This document shows positions 2,350 through 60,400 of a DNA stretch of 64,000 nt, in pieces; within the stretch, counting starts at the first letter, position 1; the number at the start of each line of letters is the position of its first letter. Below the pieces are notes generated by a model. That model was not told the DNA's origin. It searched no databases and saw only the letters and a program-made list of their open reading frames with translations. Source of the DNA: Geosiphon pyriformis uo1 (taxonomy: Eukaryota; Fungi; Glomeromycota); the NCBI GenBank assembly GCA_016748015.1, contig JAAOMT010000718.1, positions 186,001 to 250,000 on the forward strand, given 5' to 3'. The position numbers were made by a program, and so were the translations under genes.

Positions 2350-4048
2350 TATTACAGTTTAAGAATTTAGCAAAAAAATCATAAAATAATATAAATTATT
2401 CAATCATAATATACTATAGTAATAATTATAAAAAGATAATAATTAACATAGTGGCAAACACTATCTTGCAATAGTGGCAAACACTAATTAATAATAATAT
2501 ACTAACTGGTGATAGTGGCCAATACTAACTGGTAATAGTAATAAAAAAAGTATTATAATGTGTTTTCTTATAGAACTATAAATATGTATATATATAGTAG
2601 CTTTAATATTAAGAAAAACAATATTATTCAACAAGTTATAAAAACAAATTATAAAAACAAGTTATTAAACAATTCATCCAACAGTTCTACTTTAATAATT
2701 TTCTAATCTTTATTTTTAAAAATAAATATTCACAAAAACTTTTAATCAAAAAGAAATAAAAAAAATATTAAAAACTAAATTATCACAACTTAAAATATTA
2801 AAAAACTTACTTGTATTATTTATTGAATAAAACTATCATTCATTAGCTAAATTTTTTGAAAAAATAATCTCTTATTAAGATTATTTATGTTGTTACTAAT
2901 TAATAAAAAATTTATTGTAAAAATTAAAAAAAACATTAAAAGTTATTAATATTTTATGTTTTTAGATTAAAAAAACACATTAAACAATTGTAAAGATAAC
3001 CTTACAAAAAATCTCAAATACTAGATAGATTTCAGTTTAGCTTTTGAGAAAGAATACATTGTTACTTATAAAAAAAAATACAAAAAAGAAGCAAAAAAAA
3101 CAGATAGTAAAAATAGGCCAATAGAAGAATAATATTTACTAAGTGTGCATATTATTGGAAAATCATAGTATATTGCTTAAAAATGTGTAAAATTTTGTAT
3201 AACACAAATTATATATATATAATAAGAGTATTAAAAGCAGAAAAAGTATAAAAGTCAGGAGAACAAAAAGCTAGAAATTAGTAATTACTTAATATCTTTT
3301 TTTTTAAAAGATAATTTTTTATAACTTAAAGTAAACTTATACTTATATCAATATAATTATCTATTACTATTCCATTTATATTATCATTGTTTAATTAAAA
3401 AATATTAATTATTTTTGCATTATCAACAATCTATGTTGATAAAATCTAATATTTAATTATACTGGATCAATAACTCTTGATCATGGCTATTAATAAAATA
3501 CTAATTTCTTAATTTATTTTTTATTTTTTATTTTTTTATTTTTTTATTTTTTGTTGTTTACTTATTAATTAAAAGGATTAAGCACTAAGTATTTGACATC
3601 AAAAATAGTCTGGTAAAAGACCTGGAAACAAAGATAAAAATTTAAGAATAGCTTATCAAAAGAGCACAACTGCCAAAATAAACTGGTTATTATGCTGAAA
3701 AAAAAATTCACAGAAAAAACTATCAATTAAATCTCTGTCCATTATACAAAAAACTTAACTAAAATCTTTAAACTCTAAAATCTTTAAAAATTACTATTAT
3801 CAACAGTTATTAAGTATCAAGTTACAGATTTGTTATTTGTTTTAACACCCCAAATAATTACTTGTAACAACATAAATACATATAGTAATTAGAATTAAAA
3901 AATAATTTACATTGTGACATTAAAAAAAAGTCTTTAGTATAAATATTAACATTATTATACAAATAGAATTAAAAAACTTATAAAAAACTAATTACAATTA
4001 AAATAAAATATTAACAATTAAAATAAACAAGAAAACTATTCTATAATA
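2350..4048 (+). repeat. Decayed solo LTR of the D family, interrupted by solo LTR 3060-3869
   Basis: 2350-3059 and 3874-4048 are collinear with D LTR 55182-56047 (TATTACAGTTTAAGAATTTAGC...CTATTCTATAATA), with heavy C>T/G>A change. Confidence 0.85.
3060..3869 (+). repeat. Solo LTR related to the E family, 4-bp TSD ACAT
   Basis: TGTTAC...GTAACA ends. ACAT at 3056-3059 and 3870-3873. Internal blocks (CTCTTGATCATGGCTATTAATAAAATACTAA; GTCTGGTAAAAGACC) match the reverse complement of LTR 709-1563. Confidence 0.8.
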
Positions 4049-4226
4049 CTATAATATTCAATAATCAATAACTTTTTACTATTAATATAGATTATTTTAA
4101 GTGTTAGATTTAGTTTAAATTTAGTTAATTCTGATAAAATTGCAGTAAAACAAACCAATATTTCTATGACTAAAAATATTATATGATAATATAATATTAC
4201 TTATTCAATAAAATAATTATTAAATA

Positions 4227-4485
4227 TATAAGTAATCAAATTAGAGTTTCGAATTGTTTCAAGTTTTAAATTATTATTAATTATGTAAGTAATTAAGTTA
4301 GTGTTTTAAATTGTCCCAAAATTTAAATTATTATTAATTTTATGAATAATTAAGTTATAGTTTTAAATTGTTCTAAGTTTTAAATTATTATTAATTGTAT
4401 GAATAATCAAGTTAGAGTTTCGAATTGTTTTAAATTCTAAATTATTATTAATTATATAAGTAATCAAGTTGAATTTTTGAATTAG
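4227..4485. repeat. 57-bp tandem minisatellite, ~4.5 copies
   Basis: Units start at 4227, 4284, 4341, 4398 and 4455 (consensus ~TATAAGTAATCAAGTTAGAGTTTCGAATTGTTYYAAGTTTTAAATTATTATTAATTA). No spacers between units. Confidence 0.9.
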
Positions 4486-4619
4486 TTCTATCTGATTAAA
4501 GTTTTAATTGTACTTTTTTTTGTTTTTTGATTGTATTATATCTAATAGTAAAAAACATGCTATTTTTTTAACTTGTATTTCACAAAGTTATAAGAATACT
4601 ATATATTTTATGATAAGTT

Positions 4620-6183: not shown

Positions 6184-6994
6184 ACTATTTAAAGATTTTT
6201 ATAAAAATATGCAAATAAATTTATTCTTTAATAATATTATATTTATTTTTATTATATATATATAATATATACATAAACCTAAAAAAACTTATAACTTGTA
6301 ATAATCTATAACAATTTGTATTTATTAAGAATATGGATTATTTCAGGTTTGACTATAATAAAAAAAAAGACAATATTCAATTTTTTAAATATTAAAAAAC
6401 TTGATTAAAAAAAATTTTTAAATTATGTTTTTAATATAAAAATTGGTTAAATAAGAATAATTTTCTTTTAAAAATACTTATTTAAAATTTTTTTGGTAAA
6501 TTAACAAAAAAAATAAAAGAATTATAATATTAAATAACTAAATTTTTTATAATTTTTATAATAAATTAAATTAAATTAAATTTATAAGAGCTTAATTTAT
6601 ACAAAAACAATAAAAAATACTTAATTTAAAGTTTTTTAAATTTGAAATACACAAATATACAATAAATTTTAATATTAATAGCAAATATATAATTAATAAT
6701 TCAAGTTTTTTTATTAGTTTTTTTCAAAAAATTACCAAAATTATATATAATTATGTTTATAAATAAAGTAAATATTAATATTTTAAATTGATTTTTTAAT
6801 AATCAAGTTGTTTAATTTATATTAATTTTAATTATATATATTAAATTTTTATTAATTAAGATTAACTGCTTAAATATTAACAAATTAATATAATTTAATT
6901 TGGCAAATTTTATTATAGATTTTATTATAGTTTAATAAGTTATAATTAAATTAATACTACTATTTTAAATTTAAATAAAACCAAAATAATTACT

Positions 6995-9900
6995 TTTTAT
7001 TATTATTATTTAATAAGTATAGCCCAACTATTGTCTAGTATACAGAAACAAACTAAATGAATCTAACCAAATATGGTTCACACTTTTATTATATGTGACC
7101 AGTTATTTGGGCCAATCTAAACTACATTATATATCTATATAAATTTTTATACTATTACAAATATCTAAAAAAAATAAACAAGTCTTTCACAAACTAAAAT
7201 TCACAGTAAATAACTTTTTAATACCAAAAAAATAAACAATGCCTACTAACAGACAACCAAATACAAGATTAAAAAGAACAGAAATTATCTTTATATCACT
7301 AATTAGACCACTTTTTTCTATATCTATCTTGAATTTTGCTCTAAACAATCACAGCTTACTTTGATGCTTTTTAGTTAAACATTAAACAAAATTAACTACT
7401 ACTGAAACAGTTCTCTTTTTATTACCAAAAATTATAAATGTCTTATTTATTCAATCCTTAAAAACAAAATTTTTATATAAAACTGTATAAATACCAATAT
7501 TTAATATTTCAGAAAAAAGAGTATATAGTATTAAAGATAATAATAAAGAGCACCCAATTACCAAAGATTTTTACAAATTAATATGGCTTAACAAGACTTC
7601 AGAGTATGTTTCTGCCTTTTTTGAGCAAATAAAAACATGATCAAATAATTTTACCTTATCACATATCAAGCACAAAACTCCAAAATAACTTTTGTTATAG
7701 TTTTTTTTCTAACAATAACAAAAAGCCTTTTGTAAACTGCTTTTATCAAATATATACAGAGAGTAATCAAAGTCTTGCTTATAAATTCGAAAAGCATATG
7801 TAAGTTTGAATACCAAACTGCTATAATAACAATTTAATCTATATTACCAATTATAGTTTCTTCTATTACTTTAGTACTTGGGCCAGCTTTCCACCAAGCA
7901 TAACAAATAATCTTATAAATGTCTTGAATAAAATAGCAAGTATTTTTTAACACAACTTTTCTATTAACTACAATAAATTTTTTATAAATCCTCTTAGAGA
8001 GAACAAAACCAAAATGTATAGTACTACATATAAGAACATTAGTCTTATTATTACCAGTATTTTCTGAATATCTCTTGATCTTTACCTACTTAACTAAAAT
8101 ATTCTTAGCTCTGATTAAATTAATTATATAATGCCTTTTTATTTAGCACTTGTTTTAAAAGTTTAGCAGATGTAGATTAAATTCCAAAGCACATGTATTC
8201 AAAGCAGTTTAACTGTTTATATATACAATTATTAAGCAAAAAAAAGACATGTACTTTAGCACTAAAGTAATTGTTTGAAGTTTTATTAATATAAAAGACA
8301 GCAATTTATATATCTTAATATTTACCAATTCAATATCAGAAAAATAAGCTGTTGTTCTATCAATAATCTTTGCAATATTCAATTGTTTTAAAAATCTATT
8401 TATGTAAACATTAAAAACATTAGTCTATAATTTATGTAAATGTTTTTGAATATTTAAAAATTTACTTGAACAAATAATATTTAACCAGTCAAAGATAAGA
8501 ACAATCTTATTAGTTTTGGTTGAATAAATACTTATGTAGACTAAAACTTTATTAAATCACAAAGGCACTAAATTTTTAGCACTCAATTTTTTTTAGTGAT
8601 GAAAAGTTTTTTAATTTACTATATACTTACACTTATTTAACAATCTATTATCAAAAATAACACTAAAATGCTTGAAAGAAGAAATTACATCATAATAAAA
8701 AGAGTTCTTTAGAATTTTAGACATAAGAAAGTAATTAGTACTATAAAACATATTAGATAAGTTATTGGCCAAAGATAACTTGTTATTCAAAAAAAATTTT
8801 ATAATACTTGCCAAAAAATTGTTTACAAGATTAATTTTTAATTTAACAGAATACTACAAAAAATTCATTAGAGCCTATTTTAAAATTTACAAATCCAAAA
8901 AGCAATACTTAAACAAATAACTGAGAATTTCAGATATATTAAAGAACCCAATTAGTAAAGCAGTTTTGTCTTTTGTCTGTATCTGCTTAAATGTTTTTAG
9001 CTCATAAAAAGAAAGATGATGCAAAGTTTTATTAAAAAAGTTTTTTGGCAAGTTGGTTTTAGATTTGAATTTCTTTTTTAACAACACATCCCACTTTTGA
9101 CATATACTTTTAGATACAAAACTGAACTGTGTGTAGTAATTAATAATAGGTTGTAAGATTGCCAAAACCAAATAAAAAAATTATTTATTAGACAATGTCT
9201 TCTTAAAAACTAAGTTAGAAAAGAACTTAACATTTAAATATGTTTTAACAAGACTAGGCTTAAACAAACTCTTTGTCAATAGAAAGATACTTAAATATCT
9301 GTAATATTTATTATGTTTAGCTATAAAAATTGGCTAATTACTAATATATAACAAAGTATCTATAACTTATTAATTGATAAAAATTGTCACCATTTTGTTA
9401 TTATTAATAAAAATATTATTAACCTCAAAAAACTCACTAATAATATCCAAAATATGTTGTGTTAAAGCCTAACTATTTTTTATTTATATTGTATCATTAA
9501 CAAATGCATTTGCTGTAAAAAACGAAAATCTATTTCTTTCCATCTCTATTCTATCTGTTTTTGTTACAAAGTTTGTGTTAATTCTATATCTATACAAGTG
9601 TTTTTGTTTTTTAACCTTATATAACAAAGAATTATAAAAAATTCTCCATAAAAGTAGTAAGAAAACTTTACTCTGATCCAACTTATCTAGGATTTTGTAC
9701 TTATTTAAAAGACCAAAATTAGTTATTAATCTGTTGATTTTGTTTATATATATATTTCTAAAAACTTAATAAATCTTCTACATATTTTTATTTATTTCAA
9801 ACTAGTCTTTAAATATTATTATCCAATTAAATTATAGGTCTTATACATGTTTTACAATATTAGTCAAACTTTTTGACTTTTTTTCAAAGCATTTTTTACT

Positions 9901-12900
9901 ATTGAACTAATCATAAATACAGAAAATTAAATCAAAATATTTTTCAAAACTAAGAAATTATCACTTTAAAAAATATTATGTTTAATATAAACAAATAAAA
10001 TATGATCTAAATATATCTTAAAAAGTATTTTTCTAGCCATTTTGATTAATAAAATAAGTCATGTATTTGTTAAAATACTGTTATCCAAATAGAAAAACCA
10101 ATTCAAGTTATAAAAAAATGTGATCAAAAAAATGTAATAACACAAGATAACATGAAAAAGCATAGAATAATACATAATAACTCAGGATAACACAATACAA
10201 AACACAATAATATAATATAGCATAAAATAGTAAGAATAACTAATAATAATATAGAGAAATAAAGCAATAACAGAAATAGCAAAAAATAATTAGCAATAAT
10301 AAAACAATCAAAAACAGTCTTGTAAAACTAAAAAAAATGTATAAAAGAAAATAATTATAAAAGATAAACCAAAAATTAACTTCTTTTTATCTATATTTGC
10401 TATATATTCTTTGTTACATTTTATATCTTATATTACTAAAATAAAAGAAATATTAATAAAACTCAAAATTTCTATTGGTATGATTCTCATATTTTACATG
10501 TTATAACTGAATTAATCTTGTTTTTACCTTTGTTTCTGACCAGATACTCTTAGTATAAAACAGCCTCAAACTATTATGACTTAAACCAATCACTTTTAAT
10601 CATAGTGATTGATAATACTAATTTTTTTTTTTATTATCTTTTATTTTTCTATTTTTATTTTTATTTTTATTTTCTCTTGTAAAGCAGCAACATAAAAAAA
10701 TCAACTGTCTGGAAATAAACTTTATGATAGCCTGGTAAAAGAGAAAAGCTTCCCTTAAAATTAAATATTAATATTATCTTGTTAGCTTACTAGAAGGGTA
10801 AAAAGACACTATTGGACTCTAATAATTGTGTTTGACTAGTTCAGAGAAGATAATTTACATATAAGAAGTTGTAATATCATAAAACCATTTCTCTGTGTTT
10901 TATAACCAAAGAATTCTACAAGTAAATTCATATCAATCAAAAAAACTTTTAAAGACTGATAACACTGACATATCAAACAAGTCTATCAAAAAAAACCTAT
11001 TAAAAGCTTTCTAGAAACCCAAATTTTAAGCACCAAATATTATCATCATATACTACCAAGTTTATTTGTAACAATGCTTTTTTAATCATATAATTTAGGG
11101 ATCATTAAGACTTATACTCTCTTTTAGAGAGTTGGAATATCTCTAAATACCAGACAAAAATTCAATAAATATAACAAATAATCCAGTATCTTATTCTCAT
11201 AATGTTTTCAAAGTTTATTTAATATGTCTAACAAATCAGCTGCTTTGCTATTAGACAGTTCATCAATTATTATAACCAATTAATGCTTACTGATCTTGTT
11301 TATAATCTTAAAAAAAGCATTTTTCTTCACATAATCCAATAGTATGTATTGTTAAAACCAAATAATAGACAGTATTAAAAGCATTTTGTGTTTTTTATTT
11401 AATCTATTATAATTTTATCAAATTTAAGCTTTACCTTCTTTGGATCTAAAACCAACTTTTTTTCAACCACCAAATAATCCAAAATACTTCTTATCATGCT
11501 TTTTTTGTCAAAACTAAAATTCTTCATTTGTTTTTTTAATGACTGAATTTTTGGCAATCTTTGATTTATAGTACTTAGACTTTCTGTATTTTTTTCTAAC
11601 TAATAACAAATATTTAATAACATTAATTGAATTTGTATTATTCTGAACCAAAATATTAAACTTGGAAGCCTCTTTATTATCAAATATTGACTATTTTATA
11701 AGGAGGCAATCATACTCAAATATGTTGTTTGTGCTTAATCTCTTCATAATCCAGTAACTTCAGACCAAGAAATCTTAAAGACTGTTTATTTCTTAAGTAC
11801 TTAAAAATACTGAACTAATGTTTAAAAAAATATCATCTGTTGAATTTACAATTATTCTTTTTAAAATCTTTTACATATTGTTTAATTTGTCAAAAGCTTT
11901 TGTATTTATAAATCTATTTACTACTAATAATAGTTTGGTTAAAACACATTTTTTAAAATGGGTCCATTTGGCATCATTTGTATTTTTAATATTAAACTTC
12001 TAGCAATCTTTGTTTATTTATTTGTAAATACTGTTCAGACATGTATTTAAAAGTTTTTTCAAGCCAATTAAAACTACAATAATTTTATAATTTGTATCAA
12101 AAAACTTAAATACAGCACCAATTTTTCATATTATAACTGTTAACAACAGAATCTTACTAACAAAAATGTAGTTAATAATCTTTATAGTATTTCTAAAGTT
12201 ACTCTAAATAAAAATTTTTGCCAAAAAGTGTCTTTTGAGTGAATTAACCAGGCCTATATTCAAATATTTCCTAAAGCTTATACTTTTTTTAAAACCATTT
12301 TTATTAAAATTATCACCTAAAACAACAAAAGAGCTAGAATTAATAGCTTTAAAGATAATAAAATTAATATTGAAAGTCTAATTAAACCACACACTAACAA
12401 ATGCTCCAATATATAAACTTAAAATTGTAACCAAAAACTTGTTTTTAAATAAAAACTATATTGAAATCAAATGACTTGAAATCTTATTCATCTTAGAAAC
12501 ATATTAAGCTAAAGAACTGTTTATAATTACAGCCATTTTAGTATTAAAAAAACCAACATTCAAACCAGAAATAAAAATCCAAACTTTATTAAACTTATTT
12601 ATAATTTACAGCCTAATACTAGACTTTAATTTAGTTTTTACAATAATTGAAATCATGTTTCCAGATTTTATATATCAATAAACAACATCTTTTTGTTTAG
12701 TAAAAATATTAATACCCTAAATATTGCATATAGCAATTTTTCAAATCAAATCTGTTATTAAGAAGAATAAGACTCTAATTTCAAAACAAGATTATTTACT
12801 TTGGTTAAAAAGCCTATAACTGTATTTAAGAGACTTATCAAACTGTTTTTCAATTTAGAAACCACCAACAAATTAACAAATATTATTCTTATAATAGTTT

Positions 12901-14700
12901 TATTACTAGTGATTGCACCTAAACTTTTACTCATTACTATATTTGTTTTTTAATTTTGTGATAAAAAAATTATTAATGATTGATATTCAGGATTAGACTG
13001 AGAAACTATTGGCTTAAATACATCCAATTTTTTAACCAACTTGTTGACTTGCTTTATAAAATTGATAAAACTGTACTCAAGAGTAGTAAATTTATTATTT
13101 AAGTTTAAAAAAACCAATAAAAAAGATTTAACATCTAAAGATAAACCAGCACCAGAAAAAACCAAAGACACCACATAAGAAGTAGAACTATCAGCAATTT
13201 GAGTTCAAGTCTTTCTACTAAATAAAACCAGATAAGCAATTAGTGTCTGTTTCTTTTTATATATATTTGTTAAATAAATTTGATCTTAAGAATTGACCAT
13301 TCATTTATTGTAATTATCTAAATTTTTACCTACTGAACACATATCAAATACATAATCAAATTGTTTGTATTGAGCACAACAAACCAAAAAAAAACTAATC
13401 CAGCACAAATTTACATTTTTAAAAACCAGAATAGAACCAATAACAGTTTTCTTAGATGCTTTATCAATAAAACAAATTATAGCACATCTGTCATATACAT
13501 ATGAACTTGGATTGTAATCAAAAGAACAAGTTTTTTTATCATATGATTTTAACAAATCAGAAAGATTATAAACAGTAGTGTTAATAGAAAAAGTATATAA
13601 CAAAGCTTGATAAAAATTTTTAAATACTCATAATTATTTATTATTAATAACTAATATCACATGCACAGAATTTTTTTCCATGAAACCTAACTATTTGAAA
13701 ACAACTAAACCACATTTAATAACTTAAACTCTACCAAAGTCTTTTGTCAAAAACCAATCAACTGTATTTTGATTAAAACTATCTTATTAAATTTAAAAAA
13801 GACTGATTTCATTGCTGATTTAAAAAATCTACTGAGATTTCTTTAACAATTACTTTTCGATCTGTGTAACTGTTTGTTCTTCTAATATTATTATTTACTA
13901 AAATATTTTACTAATAGCCAATTTCTTAGTTTTGTTTAAGCTTAATTTGAAAGTAAAAATTGATTTAATAATGTCTAAAAATTTTGAAAAAATTGATGTC
14001 TTTTTAAAACCATTAATATGATAAAAATTTTTTTTAATAGACAGAAGCTTATCTTCAAAAGTTTTGTCAGACACCACAGAAAATTTAACATTCAGTATAA
14101 AAAACTTTATCAAACCAAAATTTTTAATTTTTTTACTATATGACTCAGTTAATAACAATTTTTTAGAACCAACAAACTTAAGTGTTGAGAGTACCAATTT
14201 ATTATTATTATTATTACTTAAAACTTTAAAGGATGGCACACTCAGTGGCCACTCTAAAACATATATTTTCATTTGTGTTTTTCTTAAAGTTGTATTATCT
14301 ATCATGTTGTCTATTTTAGAAACATTAAAATCCATATAATTCATTTTTTTTGCAATTGTGTTTTTTATGTTTTTGATATTTAATATTTTATTAATACTAG
14401 TTTCTTTACTATTCATCTTACTATTCTAAGATTTTTTGTATTTATTTTTGTCAACTTATAATATATTAATAAATAAAAACCAGTCAACAATTCTACTATA
14501 TCATTAGGAACATCAGATTTTTTTGGCTTTTTATATAAAAAACTATAAGAGTAGATATTTTCAATATGTACTTTCTTTTTAGTGCTAAACCAAATTTCTA
14601 ATCCAGTTAAGCCAGAACTAAAATTATTAACAGAAAAGCTTACTAATTCTATAGCAATAAAAATAGACATATTAAAAAAAATAACAAAAAGTGTAAAGAA
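6995..14700 (-). mobile_element. Highly decayed non-LTR retrotransposon (LINE; ORF1 + APE-RT-RNase H ORF2), interrupted by solo LTR 10079-11073
   Basis: Fragments are homologous to the + strand LINE: LLWRIFY...AFVNDTI (9484-9681), VLAILQPIINY (8887-9171) and ORF1 pieces 12950-14670. The 3' UTR and (TAA)n-like tail at ~6995-7125 are the reverse complement of 63019-63157. Confidence 0.9.
10079..11073 (+). repeat. Solo LTR related to the B family, degenerate TSD ATAC/ATGC
   Basis: TGTTATCC...TGTAACA ends. Collinear with 22628-23719. Removing it rejoins the LINE RT motif YDWEGVLTNT. Confidence 0.85.
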
Positions 14701-37881: not shown

Positions 37882-37933
37882 AAAAACACAAAAACCAACA
37901 CTCAACTTAACCAACCAAAAGAGCCAACAAACA

Positions 37934-39319: not shown

Positions 39320-39443
39320 TTTAAATTTATTATTATTATAGTTATCTTCTTATAATTTAGAAACAATCTCACAAAAACAAAACAAAAATAACATAAAAAC
39401 CCATACACCAAAAATAATTTTTTTTATTTTTAAATTGCTTATA

Positions 39444-41107: not shown

Positions 41108-41647
41108 TCGAGCAGGGGGTGGAAAAGAAGAAGGCAAAGAATGAGAAAAAGGTTACAAAAGAAGATACTTAATTCCCGAGCTCAAAGAAATAAAAGAAGC
41201 TTTAGTTCATGGAACCAAACTCCCCGAAACAGAGGAGTGGACACCTGACAATGCCCAGGAATGGAAAGAAAGACTTCCTTCAGCTTATTGGTTCTACAAA
41301 ATTGGAGAACAGCTTGACTTGAAAACATTATACGAAGACCTCAGCCAGAAAACGTTCAACAAAGAAGCAATACAACAAGTAGAAAAATTCGTAGGAAAAA
41401 ACAACCTGACTCTATATTACAAAGCAGCATACCGACTATATGCTGCCTTCCAACATTGTCCAAACATACTACTAAACAGATCTATGAAAACCATAACGGT
41501 TAACAGTATAGGACGAATAACCAATTAACAGTTCAAAGACCTACAAAAGGCAATATTCAAGGCAACAATCAAACATTACATGAATGAAGCCACAATAACA
41601 GATACATACGGTTTCACAGGAGCTCAATTTTAAAAAGAGAGGGATAA

Positions 41648-46245: not shown

Positions 46246-46697
46246 GCATGTTGTTTCACTTTTTGTTTGCCTTTGTTGTCTGTTTCTGTTTCTGATTCAA
46301 AGTCAAAAGAGTATTTAGATTGTACTGGGTATTTTTCTTCACAATACTTGATAATGTTGTAATTAAGTTCTTGAAAGTAGGTGGTATTACAGTTTAAGAA
46401 TTTAGCAAAAAGAATCATAAAAATAATACAAACTATTCAATCATAATATAGCACAGTAATAATCTTAGAAAGGTAATGATTAACATAGTAGCAAACACCA
46501 TCTCGCAATAGTGGCAAGCACCAGTTCACAATAGCAGCCAACACCAATTGGTGATAGCAGCAAACACCAGGTTGAAATATCAAAAAGAAAGTATTTTCTC
46601 GTAGAACTACAAACATGTATATATACAGTAGTTTTAATATTGGGAAATAATCAATCAAGTAATAAAAATCATAACTTATCAAGCAATAGATCTAATT

Positions 46698-47004
46698 NNN
46701 NNNNNNNNNNNNNNNNNNNNNNNNNNNNNNNNNNNNNNNNNNNNNNNNNNNNNNNNNNNNNNNNNNNNNNNNNNNNNNNNNNNNNNNNNNNNNNNNNNNN
46801 NNNNNNNNNNNNNNNNNNNNNNNNNNNNNNNNNNNNNNNNNNNNNNNNNNNNNNNNNNNNNNNNNNNNNNNNNNNNNNNNNNNNNNNNNNNNNNNNNNNN
46901 NNNNNNNNNNNNNNNNNNNNNNNNNNNNNNNNNNNNNNNNNNNNNNNNNNNNNNNNNNNNNNNNNNNNNNNNNNNNNNNNNNNNNNNNNNNNNNNNNNNN
47001 NNNN
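46698..47004. other. Assembly gap (307 N); the true gap is larger
   Basis: Only 313 bp of the 866-bp D LTR precede the gap and coding sequence resumes after it, so more than 550 bp (rest of LTR, PBS) are missing. Confidence 0.95.
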
Positions 47005-49404
47005 GCTGTGCTATTTACACACAAAATCAAAGTGATCTTGGATTACCAGAAGGGTGTTGTCCAGCAGAATCTGCCCTCACTTATTATATCAACGCCAGAA
47101 TAAATTATCATATAGGAAAGGAAGAAGAACCACACGACGCAAAACTTGGATTGTATAGAGAATTATCACAATACACTACAAAAGAAGTAGCAGTAATAGC
47201 CGCAACTATTGTCAAAATCCATCAAGAAATTGAGCAATATGCCAACAAAAATTTTCTAATATCCACAGGAAACACTAGGGAACGTGCCAACAAAACCAAA
47301 GAAAATTTAGAAACTAATCAGGAAAGTAACCAGCAAAAACTAGGAACACCAGCTCAAACACCAAAGAAAACTGTCACTCAATCAATAAAGAAACAATGTA
47401 TTTATTCACCAGAAGATAAATCATACCATTTTTCACTAGAAAATAAGATACAAATTCCATTAGGAGCTGCATCATCATCAACATCAACTCCACAAACGCC
47501 AAGAACTCCTAGTTATATTGATAAAATTAAACAACGTAACTGGGGAGACATACCAATTACAGGAGGATATTCATCACTATTCTAAAACCCTCTTTTTCAG
47601 CCAAAATTTAGAACGGAGTTTGAAAACCAAGAAGAGAAGTCTGAATCAGAATCCGAAAAAGAGACCAGTGAAAAAACAATCACAAGACCAGTCACTGGAA
47701 CAAGCAGCCAGTCTAGAAACCAAGAAACTCATGATCAAGAGGAAGAACCAGATATAAGGGAAGCCACCTTTAGGAACGCTCAAGGAAATATCATCCCACC
47801 TTCTCTTAGACCAATAAACCCACCAGCAGAAAACGGCAATGAAATGACCACACCATACATTGCAAGACTAACAGATTTCTCAGGAGAGAAAGAAGAAACG
47901 GACGTGCACACATGGCTCAGAGAAGCACAAAAAGCCATTCAGGCAAATAACTGGAAGGACCAAAGAGCAATTCAAACATTACTTTTCTTCCTGAAAGGCA
48001 CAGCCGACTCGTGGTATCAAAGTCTGGAAACAAAACCCACGAGCTTCGCCGAATTTAAAAATGCACTCCTGGAGTATTTTAGCGACCCAAACGCCATAAT
48101 CCAACTACAGAATGAATTCAATACTATCAAGCAAAATACTGGTGAAACTGTCATCCAATACCTTGCTCAATTCAATCGAATTTGCCATCAGATTGAAGCG
48201 ATTGAACAAGGATACTACACTGATCCTCAGATTTTAAATCAGTTTATTAGAGGATTAAAAAGCAGTATTTTAGGAAGAGTACGCCCTGCCCACCCTAATT
48301 CCTTACCAGAAGCCGTTACGCTCGCCAGAGCCCTTGAATTGGCTAAGAAAGAAGCTAACCATAGTCAAATGGTTAACATGGTAATGGAGGAAAATAAGAC
48401 AGAAACATTAGAGAAAAGAGTAATACGATTAGGGGAGGAACTCTCTAAGAAAATAGAAAGTTATCTCATCTCGGATCTGAGAAAAAATACATACCAACCA
48501 CCCCAAAGACACAGCCAGGAAGTCAGCGACAGTTGAAATAATCGCTCATCGTGCCAGGAATTCAGAACAGAAACATGCGCCTGCCATTTTTGCAAACGCA
48601 TAGGACATTTGATTAGTCAATGTCAAACGCGAATGATGCAGAAAGCATGCAAAAATAATTACTACGCGCCACCCCAAATGTCCAGAAACCAGTACATGCC
48701 AATACCACGCCAATATCCCACCACGTATCAAAATCAAGGAGCTTACCAGCAACAGCCTATGATAGCCAACCCGAATTGGCATTCTGAAGCCCGAAATCAG
48801 CCCATGTGGAACCAGAACACGTTGGTCCAGAGGAATCCAAACCGCGCCGGAACCAATCAGCAAACCAATCCAAACTACCAAAATTATCAACAAACTTACC
48901 TTAATATACTGGAAAACCTGATCATCGGAAACAATGACGGTAGAAACATAAACAGAACCAAAAATTCCTCCAAATTGAGCCAGACAATACCACCAGCAGT
49001 TGCCACCGAAGATAGCAGCCTCACAGCTATTTTTCCTTTTGAATTAGAGGAAAACGAGGCTATGTTCAGTGGAGCAGCATTGGACGAAAAATGCCCAATC
49101 ACTGCTATGTATACGGAAGCCACTGTAAACAATACCCCAATCAAACTTATCTTAGACAGCGGATCCGCTGGAAGCATCGTAACGCTTTAACTAGTAAACC
49201 AACTGGGTTTCAAAGTTGATCGTGCCGCGACGTCCCAAATCATAACAGCCGATGGAAGTACAAAGCTGCTTCATGGCAAAATCGACTCATTCCCTTTCGA
49301 AATTAACGGCATAGTAATACCTACAAAAGTATTAGTAATGGACGTTACACAATATCAAGCGTTAGTAGGGAATGACTGGCTAACAAAAGCCAATGCCACC
49401 CTAG

Positions 49405-50050
49405 ACTGGACCACCCAAGAGCTTCTGATCAATTATAATGGCCACCAGGCCAAAATTCCAGCCACCTGTGGCCACTTCCAAAAACCCAGTGCCAACCAAA
49501 AACCTACCTTCAAATTTGAGGAAAATCCAGCACTACCAGCCATCGAAACCTATCAGCTCTCTTGGGCTGATGACCAAAGAACAGGACTACTAGCCGTACC
49601 AACGTGGACCAGCGAAGAAAGATCCGAATAGAACCAGGTAAGTTCACGAAGAAACCACCAGCGACGCAGACCAAAGCTAGAATGCTCGGTTTGCAAGAAG
49701 AAACTCTCATCTATGACNNNNNNNNNNNNNNNNNNNNACTGGACCACCCAAGAGCTTCTGATCAATTATAATGGCCACCAGGCCAAAATTCCAGCCACCT
49801 GTGGCCACTTCCAAAAACCCAGTGCCAACCAAAAACCTACCTTCAAATTTGAGGAAAATCCAGCACTACCAGCCATCGAAACCTATCAGCTCTCTTGGGC
49901 TGATGACCAAAGAACAGGACTACTAGCCGTACCAACGTGGACCAGCGAAGAAAGATCCGAATAGAACCAGGTAAGTTCACGAAGAAACCACCAGCGACGC
50001 AGACCAAAGCTAGAATGCTCGGTTTGCAAGAAGAAACTCTCATCTATGAC
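49405..50050. other. 20-N gap (49718-49737) flanked by an exact 313-bp duplication; unmerged contig overlap
   Basis: 49405-49717 is identical to 49738-50050. Confidence 0.9.
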
Positions 50051-50779
50051 TGCATGCAGCGCACCAGACAAAGACCCAAGAAACCCCACCCACTACTATT
50101 GTAACCGTTGTAACAAAGAAAAATACGGTTATCCAGAAAGACACGGAAAATGGGACGAGGAACCGTGCCTCGCTTGTGGAGAACCATTACCAAGAGGGTG
50201 CGACTGGAATGACTTACCAGGCAGAGAAAGAACGTGTGACGCAACTTGCCAATACACGATCCTCATCTGTGACTGGGTAAGAGGAGGAACGCTGTTTGAA
50301 GCAGCGTTCAACAGAGCGTTAAAAAGACTACAGCACTACCCACACGACAAGGACGAGTTGTATAACACCGCACAAGCCAAAGTAAGAGGAGGAACTGCTG
50401 AAGAAATACGACGTTGGAAAGAGTCAGCCGAAGTAGCCGACGAAGTTGCCAGTTACAACATGTTCGACTCAGTGGACGAATTCCAGGACTACTACTAACA
50501 ACTATGCCCCACTCGACAAGAGCAAGAACAATACCTCGCCCAAATCAACACTTACCTCTGCAAAAACTGTCTCATCCCGTGCCAAAGTCAGTGCTGTGAA
50601 GAGTGTCAAGACGAAAGGGACTTAGAAAGAAAAATGGAAATTGAGAATCAGCAGTCTCAAAATCAATCAATAAATCAACAAGACTTACCTGACGGTCCCA
50701 AGTCAGAAAAATTTGTAGCCTATACTGACCTAGAACAGGTGACCAACATCCGATACTTCGACAACGGGCACTTAGGAAT

Positions 50780-51175
50780 AATACCCGAAAGAGCCCATCC
50801 AACTGACGCTGGATTTGATCTACGTTATCCAGAAGACCAATCCACAACGTTACCACCCAGAAGCATCACCAAAATCGACCTAAAAATAGTGGTTGAAATT
50901 CCGCCAGGAATAATGGTTCAAATGGTGTCGTGATCAAGCCTCATGAAAAAAGGAATAAGCGTTCAAGGAGGAGTAATTGACTCCGGATACACTGGAAATT
51001 TGATGGTTTTGCTACAGAACAATTCGGAAAAGCCTTATACCATTGAATCTAAGGAAAAGATTGCACAAGCAATTTTCCTACCATTGGTAAAAATTGGGAA
51101 ATTCGTGTCAGTAGAAAATCGTGAGGAATTGTCACAAACAACGAGAGGAACTTTTGGTTTTGGATCGACAGGAAA
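50780..51175 (+). pseudogene. dut: dUTPase domain of element D
   Basis: DAGFDL, S*(R)SS, GGVIDSGYTG, KIAQ, RGTFGFGSTG. Confidence 0.92.
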
Positions 51176-53035
51176 AGGAATTGAAGCGAATTTTGCTGAA
51201 ACAATAGAGGAAAAAGACGAAGTAATTAAAAATGAGCAGTCCATCATGCTCCTACCATATGGAAAATCAGAAATAAGAATAAAAAAGACAATTAAAGAAA
51301 AAGACCTAATATTTGAGCCCTACCCAGAAACTTGCCAACAGTTTCTCATAGGACTTACTAACCTTTTTATTCCAGCTGATAAAGCTCAATGGATAAAAAT
51401 TCCTATCGCAAACACCACAGAAGAACCCGTCTATATTCCGGAAGATACCATCATTGGATACCTTGGAACGGAGCTAGAAAACGCGTCAATACCACAAGAA
51501 ATTCTAAATTTCCCAGAAATTGCCCTCTACTGTGAACTCACTTCAATAAATTGGCAACAATTGGTAGAATGCTATCAATTTACGCCAGAAGAATTGGCCA
51601 AATTAAACATTGGAACAATGGATCCTGACCAACAGCGACAATTAAAAGCATTAATTTTAAAATACTCTGATATATTTTCAAGAAATGGCGAATTTGGAAG
51701 AACCAACTTGGTTTAACACCAAATTCCCACTGGAGACGCCAGACCTGAAAAACAACACGCTTACCGTGTCCCACCAATGGAGCATAATTTTATCAGAGAA
51801 GAAGTCCAAAGCATGTTAGAAAAAGGAATAATACAACCATCAATGAGCCCATGGTCCTCACCAGTTGTTTTAGTAAGGAAAAAGAACGGAAAAATTAGAT
51901 TTTGCGTCGACTATCGCAAACTAAACAGCAAAACAACCAAAGACTCATACCCAATACCATTAATTGACGAAATTTTCGACGTTTTTGGAGGAGCAAAATG
52001 GTTTTCTACACTGGACTTGACCAGTGAGTACTGGCAAGTGGAAATGGACCCAAAGAACAGGCATAAAACAGCATTCACAACACAAAATAGCAATTATGAG
52101 TTCAATATAATGCCATTTGGATTAACAAATGCTCCCGCGACATTCCAAAGACTAATGGACGTAATTTACTCCGGAATCCTGTGGCAATCCGTTGTTGTCT
52201 ACTTGAATGATACAAATGTTTTCTCGTCAAAATTCACGGATCATCTCCAACATTTACAACAAGTTTTTGAGAGATTGAGACATGCTGGACTTAAACTAAA
52301 TCTAGAAAAATGTTTCTTTGGGAAAAATGAGCTAGCATTTTTAGGACACGTAGTTGAAAAAGATGGAATAAAACCAGATCCATCAAAAATAGACAAAGTG
52401 AAAAATTTTCTAGTACCTCAAAACATTTCAGAAGTTAGAAGCTTTTTAGGACTCACATCTTACTACTGCCGCTTTGTAAAAAACTTTTCAAACATTGCCA
52501 AACCCCTTAATTACCTACTATCTAAAAATGTGAAGTTTGAATGGACTAAAGCACAACAAAAAGCTTTTAAGTACCTTAGACAAAAGCTCATTGAATCACC
52601 AATAATGATCTATCCGAATTTCAACAAGAAATTTATTTTGGCCACAGATGCCTCTGGAACTAGACTTAGAGCCATTCTGTTACAAAAAGATGATAATGGA
52701 AGAGAACGTGTAATCACTTATGCCAGCAGAAGTCTCAGTACGGCAGAACAAAACTATGCAGCACATGAACTTGAATGCTTAGCAGTAGTCTGGAGTTGTG
52801 TTCACTTTGACACATATTTACAGTACCAACCCTTTGAGATTACGACAGATCATAGAGGTCTGGTCTGGTTAAATAACAAGAAAGCGCTAAAAGGAAAATA
52901 CGCCAGATGGTCACAAACGTTAGCACCATACGATTATATTATCAATTACAAAAAAGGTACCAAAAATGCTAATGCCGACTGTTTGTCAAGAATGAGACAC
53001 ACATAAAAATCACCAACCCATCCGCCACAACAACA

Positions 53036-54415
53036 ATGAACAACCACCTTTACAAAAACCTCAGCCAATACTTGAAAACACTACAAATAGACAAAGAAAT
53101 GCCAGTAAAAGAGCTAATTAAGCTCCAAAAATTAGCAAAACACTATTTCATCCAAAATCACATACTTTATTACCGGAATCGACAAAATCCAGATAATCCA
53201 TTAAGAGTTATAACCACGGATGAAAAAGAAACTATCTTATTTAACATGCACTCAGATATTCATTCAGGCCACTTTGGAAAAACAGCAACCATCCAACGTG
53301 CAACTAGCCGTTACTATTGGCCAAAAATGAGCTCAGACATAATCCAATACATAAGAAATTGTGACCCATGCCAATGAAGAGGAGGAGCAAAAACAATGGA
53401 ATTATTAAGACCAATAAAAGTTGGACAGCCATTTGACAGAATCGGAATTGATTTAGTTGGACCCTTACCAATAACAACAAGAAACAACTGTTATATTGCA
53501 GTAGCCATGGACTATCTCACCAAATGGCCAGAAGCTAGAGCTATTAAAACAGTTGATGCTATTTCCGTAGCTCAATTCGTACATAAAGACTTAATTTGTC
53601 AACATGGATGTCCACAAGAATTGCTATCAGATCAAGGCACACACTTCGTAAACAGCACTTTAAAAGAACTTAGCCAAAAATTTGGAATCAAGCGACCACT
53701 GTCATCACCATACCACCCTCAAACAAATGGATTAGTTGAAAGATTTAATCGCACATTATGCGAATCACTGGCGAAAATTAGTAATGAACATGAAAAAGAA
53801 TGGGATTTGTTCATACCAGCAGTACTATTAGCATATAGAACAGTAAAACAAGATACTACACAATTCATACCATTTGAACTAGTTTATGGAAGAAAAGCCA
53901 CATTACCCGTTGAACTTACTATCCCAACTTATCCGAGTAACACTATCACGGAAGCAACATTCCAGGAAACACTACTTAGAAGAACATACAAATTAATGGG
54001 AACTTTAGAAAACAAAAGAAGAAAAGCAGCACAAAATATTGAACAATCACAAGAACAACAAAAAGTGAGACATGATAACCAGTTACCAGATAATATAATT
54101 AGCTACAAAATTGGAGATAAAGTATTGTTGCATCATACAAAAATGGAAAAACAGTGGAGTAGAAAATTTGATCACAAGTGGGATGAACCATTTTATATTC
54201 ACAAAATACTTGGAAATGGAGCATACAAGCTAAGACTAGATGATAAAATATTAAGAAAAGCAGCACATGGTAACCGGCTGAAATTCTATTACAGTAAACC
54301 AGTAATAACAACAAAAACACCCAGAATTGGTACACAATTACCTTTAATTCTACCAGAACAAATTCCACGAGATTTAGAACCAATAGTTTTAATTGAACAT
54401 TATTCGAAAAGATAA
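53036..54415 (+). pseudogene. Element D stand-alone integrase ORF (one CGA>TGA stop at 53375)
   Basis: Starts MNNHLYKNLSQYL. HSDIHSGH...CDPC; GIDLVGP, LSDQG, NGLVERFN (D,D35E); GPF-type domain; no chromodomain. Confidence 0.95.
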
Positions 54416-54499
54416 TTAATCTTAGATCACAGCAAAAATGATTTAACAACCATAAAAACGCATGCAAAAGATTCCAAAATAACAGTCAAAATTAAAACA

Positions 54500-55168
54500 A
54501 TGATACTTATTCCAGAAAACATCAACAATATAACTCAACAATTAGTTGAAAGCTTACAACAATTAAAATCCAATCTAGAAATCACAGTTAATAGCTCCAA
54601 AATAACATACATAAAAAGAACAATAGAAAATCCAAAAACAAGAAAAGAACATAATTTCGAACCATATAATATTGCCAAATATAACACCAAATTTATTAGC
54701 AAAGTTATTGAAAAATTAGAGATAGCATTGGGCAATACATTAATAATGGAAGAAATAGAAATAAGTGAATTAACACCAGACATATTTAGCAACTTGAAAA
54801 CGAAATTCCCAATTAATTACTGTTATTATCAACTAGGAAAGCACTTGAACATACAAACATTATACTCAAAAGACTCAACTAGAGTGTTTGACAAAACAAC
54901 TATCCAACTATTAGAACCTTTCATTGGAAAAACCAACACTACATTCCATTCAAAAACAGTTTACAGAATTTTCAAAGCATTTGAAAACTGTCACAAATTA
55001 TTGTTGGACCCAACCATGAACATAATAACAACCAACAGTATTGGACGACTTACCAACTCGCAATTTCAAGAATTACAACAACAAATTAATAACACAGTAT
55101 TGAACCACTATAGTAACTTAGAATTTAATGAAGAAATTAACTTCAATTTCGACGGAGCTCAATCTTAA
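54500..55168 (+). CDS. Element D ORF3, intact 222-aa protein of unknown function in the env position
   Basis: Uninterrupted ATG-to-TAA frame between integrase and PPT. Homologues occupy the same position in A, B and C. Confidence 0.85.
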   Translation: MILIPENINNITQQLVESLQQLKSNLEITVNSSKITYIKRTIENPKTRKEHNFEPYNIAKYNTKFISKVIEKLEIALGNTLIMEEIEISELTPDIFSNLKTKFPINYCYYQLGKHLNIQTLYSKDSTRVFDKTTIQLLEPFIGKTNTTFHSKTVYRIFKAFENCHKLLLDPTMNIITTNSIGRLTNSQFQELQQQINNTVLNHYSNLEFNEEINFNFDGAQS

Positions 55169-55181
55169 AAGGAGGGGATAA

Positions 55182-56047
55182 TGTTACAGTTTAAGAATTT
55201 AGCAAAAAGAATCATAAAAATAATACAAACTATTCAATCATAATATAGCACAGTAATAATCTTAGAAAGATAATGATTAACATAGTAGCAAACACCATCT
55301 CGTGATAGTGGCAAGCACCAGTTCACAATAGCAGCCAACACCAACTGGTGATAGCAGCAAACACCAGGTTGAAATATCAAAAAGAAAGTATTTTCTCATA
55401 GAACTACAAACATGTATATATACAGTAGTTTTAATATTGGGAAATAATCAATCAAGTAATAAAAATCATAACTTATCAAGCAATAGATCCAATTTTATTC
55501 AACAAACTCCACTTTAAATCATACTTTCAAATTAAATATCCCAAAAAACCTTTAAAATCAAAAAGAAATGAAAAAGAATATTTAAAACTGAACTATCACA
55601 ACCCAAAGTATTAAGAAACTTACTTGTATTATTTATTGAATGAAACTATCATTCATCAACTGAATCCCTTGGAAGAATAATCCTTGATCAAGATTATTCA
55701 CGTTGTTACTAATTGATAAAAGCTTTATTGTGAGAATTAGAAAAGCGCTAAAGACCATTAACATTCTGTGTTTCTAGATTAGAGAAACACATCAGGCAAT
55801 TGCAAGGATAGCCTCAGAGAAGACCCCAGACAGTGGGTAGATTTCAGTTCAGCCTCTGAGAAGGAGTACATAAACACACACAACAATCAAGAATTAAAGA
55901 ATAACTTACACCGCAACAGTAAAAAGAAAGCCTTCAGTGTAACAGTGATATTATCACACAAATAGAACTGAGGAACTCACGAAAGACTGATTGCAATTAA
56001 AGCGGGATATCAGCAATTAAATATAACAAGAAAACCATTCCATAACA
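55182..56047 (+). repeat. 3' LTR of element D (866 bp) with 4 x 23-bp tandem units at 55283-55374
   Basis: TGTTAC...ATAACA ends. The first 313 bp differ from 46385-46697 at 7 positions by my count, all transitions. Confidence 0.95.
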
Positions 56048-56344
56048 GTGGCAAGTGTTTCACTGTTAAGGTCTTCAGTTCCCAATTGTAAATAATGTAC
56101 TAGATTATTGTAGAGGTTGCTTTTTACTTTTAAAATGTTGTAATTTCTAAGAAGATAATTATTGATATGGTTTTCAATATATTGATAGAATGTTCTTTCA
56201 ACAATTTCAATTCCATCTGGGATGTTGAATCTTTGCTTGCAATGGGTGTAAATTGACTGATAATACTCTAGAGTTGTTGTGTCTGGTGTGGTTGCCACTT
56301 TGAAGTTTGTTGTTGCTGTGTTATTTCCATAGGAAAGCACCAAA

Positions 56345-57350
56345 TGTTACCAGAGGTTTTTGGTCTCTTTTCTTGAATGTTGTAAATATTTGTTGGTTGC
56401 AAATTCACGTTTTCTAGAAGTAGTTGAACCTCCAATAACTGAATTTATCTTCAAATTATAGAAGATAATTTGAACTTGCTGGGCTTATAAATGGAATGGC
56501 CAATTCCTTGTCAGTTACTTTATGTAGTTACGTTGTAGTAAATGTCAACTCTTTCCCAGAAATTGCTTGTTTAGAAGCTCACTAAAAATGTGTAGTTACT
56601 TTGCTGTGAAAGTCAACTCTTCTACAGGAATCTTATCTGTAGACTACCTTAATAATTGTAATAAGAAAAAAAAAAAAAAATAAAAGAAATGTAAAAGAAA
56701 TAGGATTTTATCAAGGGAAACGTTTTCTATCCAAGCCTGGAGTCACTAATAGTTTACTGAAATTGGTAGCTAATTAATTTCAGGGGTTTTTGGGATTTTC
56801 CAAGTGCAATAATTAAAGAATTTGGTTTTTTGAATTATTTGATTTTTTTATTTTTTCTTGTGTATATAAAAATGGTTCTAAGTAATAAATCTAAAGTAAG
56901 ATACATTTTCTTAAAGAGAAAAGCTTTTTTTATATACAACTTGTTGTAGTACTAGTCTATGAACTTGCACTTTTTCTTTTTGCTCAAATTTTGGCAAACT
57001 AAAGATACATTTTGATGAACTACAAGTTATTTTTGCTGAACTCTTGATTAATTTGTATGAACTATTCATAATTTCAGTGAATTTCTGTAAATTTTGGTGA
57101 ATTTCTTATAAATTTTGGTGAATTTCTGTAAATTTCAGTGAATTTTAGAATGTTACAAAGTTCAGAGTATTGTGTAATTTGATCATCCTACTTTCTGTTA
57201 TACTAATTAGATTATTTTAATTGAATCGTGATATGTGATAATTGATTAAATAATAAATGATAATTTGAAATGATATTAATATACTAATTAATTATAGGAA
57301 TTATAAGGGTAATTTCATGCTAATTAATAGCTAAAATTCTACTGGTAACA
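56345..57350 (-). repeat. 5' LTR of element A
   Basis: TGTTACC...GGTAACA ends, adjacent to the PBS. Paired with 16704-17719. Confidence 0.95.
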
Positions 57351-57484
57351 GTGGGTGCAGTGAGTTTTGATACTTTTATTATTTCAAAAATAGAGAAAAC
57401 ATTGAGAAATCTTTCAGTTACAGTTATGAGCCTTTCAGCTAAAATGAAAAATAATGGTTCTGTTTCTACTATTTGTTCTTTTCA

Positions 57485-60400
57485 ATGAGTGAGTTAGTAT
57501 AGAAATTTGGTACATGTAATGTCTGAAATATTAATGTTCCTGCCAAGCAAGTAGACATTGTACATTGGCATGTAAATTCTGGTAATATGGTGTCTTTTGT
57601 CACAGAAACTAAATTGAAGTCCAGTGTTAAGCTGTGAATTACTAATAAGTTTAAAAGTGTGCATGTCTTTACATTGAGTTTGGAAGAAAGTTTTCTTAGT
57701 GCTGGGATGGCTGTTGTTACAGGTGACAATTTCCAGTGTTAAATTAAATATGAACCCATAACTTGGTGCTCAAAGCTATTCTCGTTGTCAATAATCTGAA
57801 GATTTGGTATCTGAAGGTTTTGTATTTGAAGAGTTTGGTTGAGTTCTTTGTATAATGGACAGAGATTCAATAGTAATAGTTTTTTCCATAGCTTCCCAAA
57901 ACCGCAGTTTTGTCAATTTCTTTCCCAGCTTGATGGCTGGTATTCCTTCTGGTAAGTTATTCTCAATCAATTGTTCTACCCTTATTTCTGGGTCTTTTAC
58001 CAGTCATGTTTATTCTGACATTAGTGCCCCACATGTTAATCCTCAATAAAGTTAGTAAACAACAATAAAATTAAAGCAAGAAAATAAAGAAAAAAAAATA
58101 AAATAAAGAAAGAAAAGAAATAAGCCAAGGCGATTTACAAGTTAGTATTCTGTTAATAGCCCTGATCAAGAGCTATTGTTCCAGTGTGATTAAGTATCAA
58201 TTACTATCAACATGAAGTATTGATAGTGAAAATGGATTTGAGATAACAAATAGTTATTTATTAGATACTTGTAATTTGGAGAGTTGCTTAGATTAAATCT
58301 AAACTAAGAGGTCTGTCTTTTCAGCTTTTAATTCTGCTGCTATATATACATAATTGAGATTCCTCAATTTCTTGATTCTTTATGACAAGAATCCTGGAAT
58401 TCTGGAATCCTACGATTCCTCGTCGGAGAATCCTAAAATTCCTGGAATCCTGCAATTTTTGAGAGGAATTCTGGAATTCCACATTTACTACACCTATTTC
58501 TGATTGGCTAATAATTATGCTAATATATTTCTTATATATTTTATGAGTAATACTGTTATTATGGACAATTCTCTGGCTTGGTATATGTCTAAGATTGAGG
58601 AGGTGCCTGGTTGGGTTATTTTGGTATAGCTTTTGTTCAAAGACAAGCTTTCTGTAACTGTACTTGGTTTGTATACTGGTGCTTTTTATAGCATTTGTTT
58701 TGGGCAGATGTCTGAAGTAAACTTTATTATTGCTAAGGCTGTTAACTCCAGCACTTTTGTGGTTCTGGGTGGGGATTTTAATAAATATGGGTCTGGGAAG
58801 AGTGTGAGTTTCAGGTTCTGCCTAAATCTGGGTCTGGTCAATTTGTTTGCTGGTCATTGTTTGGTTAATACTCTTATTTGGTGCAATTTAAAAAGTGTTG
58901 AAAAGACTATTGATTACATTTTTGTTAGTAATAGTCTGTCTTCCACTGTTGCTAAACATTGGGTTGGTTTTGTTTCTGAATTTTTTGATACAGATCACAA
59001 TACTGTTGCTGTGTCAGTTGGTTTAGGTGGGCTCTTGGATGTTCAGTTGAATAGTTTGTGTAAGCAGACTAATAAAGATTGTTGAAGATTCAAAATTAAA
59101 GATGCAGACAGTATTGGATGGTTTTATTTTAAGGACTGCTCCTCCACCAGGATTTTGATGATAAAGGATAAGTTTTTTGCCACTGCTGCTGATCATAATT
59201 TGGATGCTATATAGTCACTGCTGGAAAAGGCTTTGGTGGATTCTGCTAACAAGATATTTTTTAAACATTGGTTTAGTGTTTTTCAATGTTCAAAGAATAT
59301 GCAATCTTCTAAATTTCTGGGATTAGAGTTGTTGGTTGTTAAGATTGTCAAAAAACTGGGCTCTGCTGATATTCTTGGTTTCAATTGTCTTGCAAAGAAG
59401 TGGGCATCTTTGAATGCTGTTAATACTCTTGCTTTAGAAAACATAGTTTGCAATGGTCAAAAATCGGAGGATATTCTTAAATATTTGTTACTTATCAGAA
59501 AGAGGTATAGGAAGTTTAAATTACATAAATCAAAATTGGCACAGGAAGCTTCTATTAAAGAGGCTGTCAAAAAGTACATGGAGAAGTTTTGTTTGGATAA
59601 AGAAAGTATGATCAAAAGTGTCTTAAATAGGCCTTTTCAAAAGGTGGTGTTGGATCATTTGGTGGTCAATGATGAGTTGATTTTGGAACCAGATAAAATA
59701 AGATTGAGTGTCAACAGTATCATGGAAGGTTGGATGAGGAAATGTGTAGTGTCTTCTGTGCTTTCTGGTCTCTGGACTTATCAATATGCACCTTTGGACT
59801 ATGTTAGAGATAGTACCTTTTCTGGTGTGATGGATGTAGTCAGTATAGATGAATTGCTTTCAGTCATTGGTGGTCTGCCTGATGGCAAAGCCACTGGCCT
59901 GTCTGGCATTTCTAATGAACTATGAAAACATGGTAGTGAAAAAGTATTAAAGTGTCTTTTGGTGTTGTTGAACATGTGTTTATCTGTTGGTATGGTGCCT
60001 GCTTTGTGAAGGAAGGCATGGGTTTTGATGATTCCTAAGTCTTATGACTGGGATGGGGTCTTTACAAACACTTGACCTATTGCTTTAATTGAAACTGCTA
60101 AGAAAATTTTGTCTAAAATTCTGTCTGATCATATATCATTGGCATGTAGCAAGTTTGGTATTCTCCAGGGTGATAACTTTTTAGTGCTTCATGACATGTC
60201 CACGCAGTTCCTGGTGTTTATGGTTGGATCAGTAGTGGAGGATGCTTTCGAGAAAAACAGAGAAGTTTAATTGGTGTTACAGGATATGTAAAAGGTGTAT
60301 GATTCTGTTAGTTGGCATTATTTAAGAGCTAGCTTATGGCACATCAAAATGTGTGAAAGATTCATTGAGTTTTTTGGTAATATCTATAAAGACAGAGTTA

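Follow-up and report, generated by a model that had tools for sequence, protein, structure and literature searches.

A nest of gypsy elements in two LINEs

The window analysed here, 64,000 nucleotides of the forward strand of contig JAAOMT010000718.1 (positions 186,001 to 250,000) of the fungus Geosiphon pyriformis, holds dUTPase-bearing Ty3/gypsy long terminal repeat (LTR) elements nested in two long interspersed nuclear elements (LINEs). Self-alignment of the window resolved four elements with two LTRs (C, D, F and H), four solo LTRs (A, J, G and B), a truncated element (E) and an old LTR (K). The LTRs belong to families C/F/G, D/J, H/K and A/B/E. Our subject is the central dinucleotide of the 4-bp target-site duplications (TSDs) that flank these guests, and what it suggests about target choice by their integrases. 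The features are listed below in window coordinates.

709–1563, minus strand: 5′ LTR of element E, which runs past the window edge; 71% match to LTR B, with the primer-binding site (PBS) on its left side and the outer flank ATGT at 1564–1567
2350–4048, plus strand: LTR K, old, solo-like, of the H family (74–76% match to the H LTR) and interrupted by A; imperfect flanks GTGT/CTAT
3056–3873, plus strand: solo LTR A (3060–3869), TSD ACAT/ACAT; empty-site homolog ACAT in the 3′ LTR of H (55868–55871)
6300–14500, minus strand: decayed LINE copy 2, ends approximate, the target of J; 63–71% inverted match to LINE copy 1
10075–11077, plus strand: solo LTR J (10079–11073) of the D family, TSD ATAC/ATGC; empty-site homolog ACCC at 60056–60059 (minus strand)
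14840–63200, plus strand: LINE copy 1, ends approximate, split by C and B; open reading frame (ORF) 1 with a weak RRM, then endonuclease, reverse transcriptase (RT)-like and RNase H-like stretches
16700–57354, minus strand: gypsy element C (16704–57350), TSD GCGG/GTGG; LTRs 16704–17719 and 56345–57350, 5.6% diverged; hosts D, G and H
22624–42723, plus strand: gypsy element D (22628–42719), TSD GCAG/GTGG; LTRs 22628–23719 and 41648–42719, 10% diverged; homolog GCGA in F
31232–41111, plus strand: gypsy element F (31236–41107), TSD TTGG/TCGA; LTRs 31236–32217 and 40131–41107, 6.2% diverged; inside the post-integrase ORF of D
45269–46249, plus strand: solo LTR G (45273–46245) of the C/F family, TSD GTGT/GCAT, in the gag region of C; homolog GAGT
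46381–56051, plus strand: gypsy element H (46385–56047), the youngest, TSD GTGG/GTGG; 3′ LTR 55182–56047; gap of Ns at 46698–47004; homolog GTGG
53378–54412, plus strand: integrase core and SH3-like C-terminal domain of H, grouping with the integrases of C, D and F (support 100/99 in a tree of 29 rows)
57711–58556, minus strand: solo LTR B (57715–58552) of the E family, TSD CTGT/CTGT; empty-site homolog CTGT in the decayed LINE copy 2

The guests have the TG...CA LTR ends, PBS, polypurine tract (PPT) and gene order of Ty3/gypsy elements, with dUTPase lying between protease and RT; Pfam and tblastn placed gag, protease, dUTPase, RT, RNase H and integrase in gypsy order, and in H an extra ORF comes after them. 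The best solved relative of the integrase is Ty3-G Gag-Pol (E = 1.2 × 10⁻⁴⁸), followed by the integrase of prototype foamy virus (PFV), and among named proteins Rhizophagus integrases come closest, at about 50% identity. Ty3/gypsy elements of Glomeromycotina (Rhizophagus) share with those of the window the integrase family, TGTTA...TAACA LTR ends and the PBS/PPT layout. Chromoviruses carry a chromodomain at the integrase C terminus, which directs them to heterochromatin. No chromodomain was found in H or in 19 scanned ORFs at E values up to 1, and the integrase tails gave only SH3_Tf2-1 in C, D and H and no match in F, so these are not chromoviruses. Nor are they of the Gmr1 type, in which the integrase lies upstream of RT: it follows RT–RNase H in all four elements. 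The extra ORF that comes after the integrase in all four two-LTR elements (at 54416–55165, 39590–40159, 41145–41525 and 17703–18293) had no Pfam or Atlas match, which is uninformative either way on an env-like (errantivirus) identity.

The central step of the target-site duplications

The TSD sequences given in an initial annotation made from the letters of the window were confirmed without exception, in all 16 copies as well as in the unpaired flank at 1564. At a length of 4 bp, 24 of 32 positions are identical between copies and all 32 are identical or differ by transitions; identity falls to 5 of 24 at 3 bp, 9 of 40 at 5 bp and 16 of 48 at 6 bp, and the poor identity rules out 5- and 6-bp duplications. 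TSD boundaries were set independently by LTR-pair alignments and empty-site homologs. Both copies have a pyrimidine–purine (YR) centre in 8 of 8 pairs, and seven pairs begin with A, C or G. The annotation had all eight pairs centred on CpG or its deamination products, which holds by pair but not by copy: 15 of the 16 copies have CG, TG or CA, and the left copy at 10075 has TA. Its proposal of an ancestral central CG in four pairs is borne out, the evidence for CpG being direct in 4 of 8, as is its remark that TA is never common to both copies; we found no omitted TA/TA pair. The pair that it did omit, that of K (GTGT/CTAT), has a TG/TA centre and a transversion at position 1. The composition is concentrated at the centre, where CG, CA or TG occurs in 7 of 8 and 8 of 8 cases, against 0–4 of 8 at 22 flanking offsets (12 to the left of the TSD start and 11 rightward from the last TSD base, plus the outer TSD steps).

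Misplaced boundaries, or an unusual mutation process at the junctions, might mimic CpG-derived centres. Five of the eight pairs are imperfect and several outer LTR termini are altered, whereas the inner termini that can be seen are intact. Against such an artefact, no length other than 4 bp fits, empty-site homologs fix the exact junction position at seven sites, and the eight mismatches between copies are all transitions, seven of them on the two central positions; we give this explanation very little credence. Seven of 19 outer LTR ends (16704, 31236, 41107, 46385, 58552, 2350 and 4048) carry a mutation in the terminal TG/CA; none of the inner ends seen does. The altered outer termini have TG changed to TA or CA at C, F, H, B and K, and an extra G at D.

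As an empirical null we used 3,041 aligned dinucleotide columns from three LTR pairs of similar age (C, D and F). Under this null, YR centres in both copies of all eight pairs have a probability of 6 × 10⁻⁶, and evidence of CpG in at least four of eight pairs one of 2.4 × 10⁻⁵ overall and 0.007 given YR; the absence of TA/TA given YR has a probability of 0.014. Because the pattern was recognized post hoc, each probability should be raised roughly tenfold. The overall values withstand this correction and the YR-conditional ones do so only marginally, so that the latter are suggestive, not decisive.

CpG decay, empty sites and a likelihood model

CpG cytosines have changed rapidly in these elements. 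Between LTR copies they differ at 7 of 11 sites in C, 17 of 33 in D and 16 of 22 in F (52–73%), compared with 11–29% of non-CpG cytosines, and even in the young LTR pair of H, with 6 differences over about 311 comparable bases, two of three CpG columns already differ. Such decay is what CpG methylation would be expected to leave behind; this kind of methylation has been documented in Rhizophagus transposons (PMC8647823) and probably operates in Geosiphon too. A RIP-like (repeat-induced point mutation) process acting on CpA was rejected as the main cause, CpA cytosines changing no faster than those in CpC or CpT. Among the former, CAC cytosines are altered about twice as often as CAA cytosines (19 of 69 versus 28 of 217). 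Transversions between LTR pairs track the nesting order (C 9, D 3, F 1, H 0). Total LTR divergence departs from it, being 10% in D, which lies inside C, and 5.6% in C, and transition-based LTR dating therefore misorders the nest.

Uninterrupted homologous sites, which place the junction to the base, are present in the window for seven of the eight insertions; for F none was found there. The homolog of D's site, in F, keeps CG (GCGA). That of J has C at position 2 and so adds a fifth site with evidence of CpG, this C and the right copy's G together indicating ACGC; that of G (GAGT) has G at position 3; and that of C (ATAA) is too decayed to inform. The homologs of A read CA and those of H and B read TG. 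Twelve contigs of run X1 connect an empty-site flank to position 56047 without interruption, an indirect sign that H's site carries TG in the family.

We combined these data in a likelihood model with a family ancestor, decay before insertion, an integrase weight and decay after insertion, empty-site homologs included. A YR preference with a 15–97-fold weight on CpG beat YR alone in nine of nine parameter settings (2ΔlnL 8.6–20.7), with a fitted CpG share of insertions of 0.73–0.74. For J, C, D, F and G the model puts the posterior probability of CG at insertion at 0.89 or higher; for A, H and B it is 0.17–0.45 (about 0.37 for A and about 0.18 for H under the best model). At least five insertions likely hit a CG site, and the data support a strong excess of CpG at the centre of the TSDs over what a generic YR preference would give.

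A stricter rule, by which every insertion fell on NCGN and the TG/TG and CA/CA pairs arose by decay of both copies in the same way, gains from several of these results. A CG-only model lies just 1.1–1.3 lnL units under the best fit, decay is as fast as the young H pair indicates, and the TSDs of Ginger1 transposons are 99% CCGG or CCGT/ACGG (PMC2836005). It has to contend with the youngest element, H, which has TG in both copies and in its homolog in F, as do the run X1 contigs by suggestion, and with A, whose two copies, like the young H LTR, read CA. We regard the strict rule as distinctly improbable. The NCGN targeting put forward in the initial annotation stands as regards the CpG excess, and the double hit described next speaks for it too; its strict form goes beyond the data, A and H having more likely been CA and TG at insertion.

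The site of D provides a further line of evidence. In P0139, a predicted protein from another G. pyriformis contig, pol of the C/F family runs into the end of a C/G-family LTR at the very codon that D entered; this was the single match in two translated-LTR-end searches for proteins that cross an LTR end. F has CGC at this codon, H has CGA and D has TGA, and the site is a conserved CpG that has apparently been hit by two different LTR families. By our own estimate, from roughly 180 ancestral CpG sites versus roughly 1,800 YR steps per 7.7-kb element, a second hit is about ten times likelier if targets are restricted to CpG than if they are generic YR steps. Both insertions, at 42720–42723 and in P0139, are antisense to the host, and the site may be a hotspot with a motif longer than CG.

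The double hit and the rejection of YR alone by the model both count against a simpler explanation, in which the integrase has a generic YR preference, perhaps against TA, and the CpG excess comes from small numbers and post hoc pattern finding. YR centres in 8 of 8 pairs recall the VYRB motif of PFV (PMC4422553), a model of YR without TA lies about 1.5–7.5 lnL units under the best one, plant 4-bp TSDs are GC-rich at the centre in general (PMC6911290) and the flanks of related elements include TA. The YR enrichment of retroviruses, about 63% above a 22% background (PMC4422553), is too weak to account for 8 of 8. We hold this explanation to be unlikely.

Other flanks broaden the picture. A TG centre recurs in the flank of E (ATGT) and in a contig of run X2 (ATGC), and run X1 gave a weak consensus flank starting ATG; the flanks from the two runs were drawn from 11 of 335 loose contig ends. 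The search for relatives covered 80 metagenome and 6 short genome-bin loci, mostly collapsed repeat contigs, and 3 of the 86, in metagenome relatives with about 50% integrase identity, had an LTR end with a non-PBS flank (CCGT, CCAG and GTAG; all YR, all single flanks). More distant gypsy elements at 15 genome-bin loci yielded five paired 4-bp TSDs (GATT, GATC, AAAG, CATA and ATCT) and four loci with repeats of undefinable ends. No distant TSD (0 of 5) has a YR centre, so the YR rule is not inherent to gypsy integrases that make 4-bp duplications. The annotation had treated a flexible YR centre as established for such integrases; this is right for retroviruses (PMC4422553) but extends neither to these TSDs nor to Drosophila gypsy, with its TATA/TRYA (PMC3276498). 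The LTR-end pattern occurs at five places in the window and at none in metagenome or viral contigs. Integrase scans of the viral contigs returned 0 and 3 weak loci, and 120 PBS-pattern loci there were taken as chance matches. Eukaryotic gypsy elements on contigs in prokaryote genome bins (L204–L218) are probably contamination.

We favour, with somewhat better than even confidence, a gypsy integrase that makes 4-bp TSDs and strongly prefers CpG at the target centre, CA/TG probably being its second choice. An intrinsic preference of the intasome is the best reading of the data, and the signal is real and probably new, on a small sample. Several points weigh against it. There are eight pairs, in which the pattern was spotted after the fact, and A, H and B offer no positive evidence of CpG. 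In the likelihood model, solo-LTR ages and homolog branches were set by hand, and the CpG weight has a lower bound of 2–17 and an upper bound that was not reached. The junction residue of P0139, a predicted protein rather than DNA, is Tyr, and that TSD copy would now read TA. The three flanks of the relatives comprise one CG, one CA and one TA, and the CpG preference may not be clade-wide.

Target choice, methylation and nesting

During foamy virus integration the 4-bp target site is kinked at its middle step, where YR is favoured (PMC4422553). The gypsy integrases would kink their target likewise, and local contacts of the integrase may weight this step toward CG, in about three quarters of insertions by the fit. 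Most centres would later become TG or CA as C gave way to T, a decay for which CpG methylation by the host is the likely driver. The CpG-rich sequence of repeat regions lies in young transposon copies, and such a preference would therefore direct new copies to recent insertions rather than to old ones.

This runs counter to the proposal of the initial annotation that CpG targeting steers these elements into older transposons and so explains the deep nesting. The old LINE copies are nearly CpG-free, with 2 CG in 3,775 bp and 7 in 4,444 bp, and the youngest element has 195 in 8,180 bp; CpG seeking would therefore favour young copies. Older transposable elements also have lower CpG methylation in Rhizophagus (PMC8647823). 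Moreover, LTR elements make up 41.2% of the G. pyriformis genome (PMC11952901), so nesting is likely even without targeting. That the integrase itself reads methylated CpG, the silencing mark of the host serving as a landing signal without a chromodomain, strikes us as quite unlikely; no methyl-CpG-binding domain was found among the ORFs scanned. If it were true, new copies would land in young, CpG-rich transposons that had just been methylated and would avoid unmethylated genes, and each nest would record bursts soon after the silencing of the host copy.

Among known systems, the closest in target is Ginger1, whose transposase resembles a gypsy integrase and whose TSD is CCGG in 75% of cases and CCGT/ACGG in 24% (PMC2836005). 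It shares with the Geosiphon elements a gypsy-type DDE integrase, TGT termini and a CG-centred 4-bp TSD. It differs in comprising DNA transposons with terminal inverted repeats of 40–270 bp, no RT and a fixed 4-mer, whereas the elements here are LTR retrotransposons with direct LTRs, gag, RT and variable outer TSD bases. CCGG, CCGT or ACGG occurs in none of the eight pairs; the centres agree and the outer bases differ. PFV and other retroviruses with 4-bp TSDs likewise have a central YR and disfavour outer T and A, but their YR enrichment is modest and the accessible text describes no CpG weighting (PMC4422553). By our own reading of the alignment, the residue of H aligned with PFV Ala188 is Thr. 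Drosophila elements of the gypsy group are also Ty3/gypsy, with 4-bp TSDs and clade-specific target motifs, but these motifs (ATAT, TATA/TRYA and CGCG) have TA, AT/RY and GC at the centre and, in the text accessible, never CG (PMC3276498, PMC5408687). Plant LTR retrotransposons with 4-bp TSDs resemble the present elements in a GC-rich central dinucleotide, nested or not; that set was pooled over families and, as far as its accessible text goes, neither resolved to CpG nor tied to decay (PMC6911290). For gypsy elements of Glomeromycotina, we found no target-site description in the literature searched, with supplements and most subscription papers lying outside the search.

A CpG-weighted gypsy integrase would link target choice to a mark of host defence, as relatives of this fungus methylate CpG in transposons, and its preference would be self-limiting, because decay removes the targets. 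It also has a practical side: since CpG-centred TSDs decay fast, annotation tools that rely on perfect TSDs will miss or misdate these elements, and the resulting logos hide CG. Kitamura (1992) reportedly observed that CpG methylation affects retroviral integration in vitro. A CpG-weighted integrase of this kind would make that lead testable in a natural genome with thousands of insertions.

Several minor observations concern the nest as a whole. Six of the eight guests are antisense to their host element, which is not significant at n = 8. The two LINE copies (6300–14500 and 14840–63200) lie head to head, the left one being far more AT-decayed. LINE copy 1 has weak Pfam matches to RRM_1 and Exo_endo_phos and one ORF 100% identical to a G. 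pyriformis protein; stretches of its translations carry what we take to be RT and RNase H motifs. Two features of H appear to be assembly artefacts: the gap of 307 Ns at 46698–47004 and, at 49405–50050, a 313-bp perfect direct repeat around a gap of 20 Ns. A tandem array of about five copies of a 57-bp unit occupies 4211–4495.

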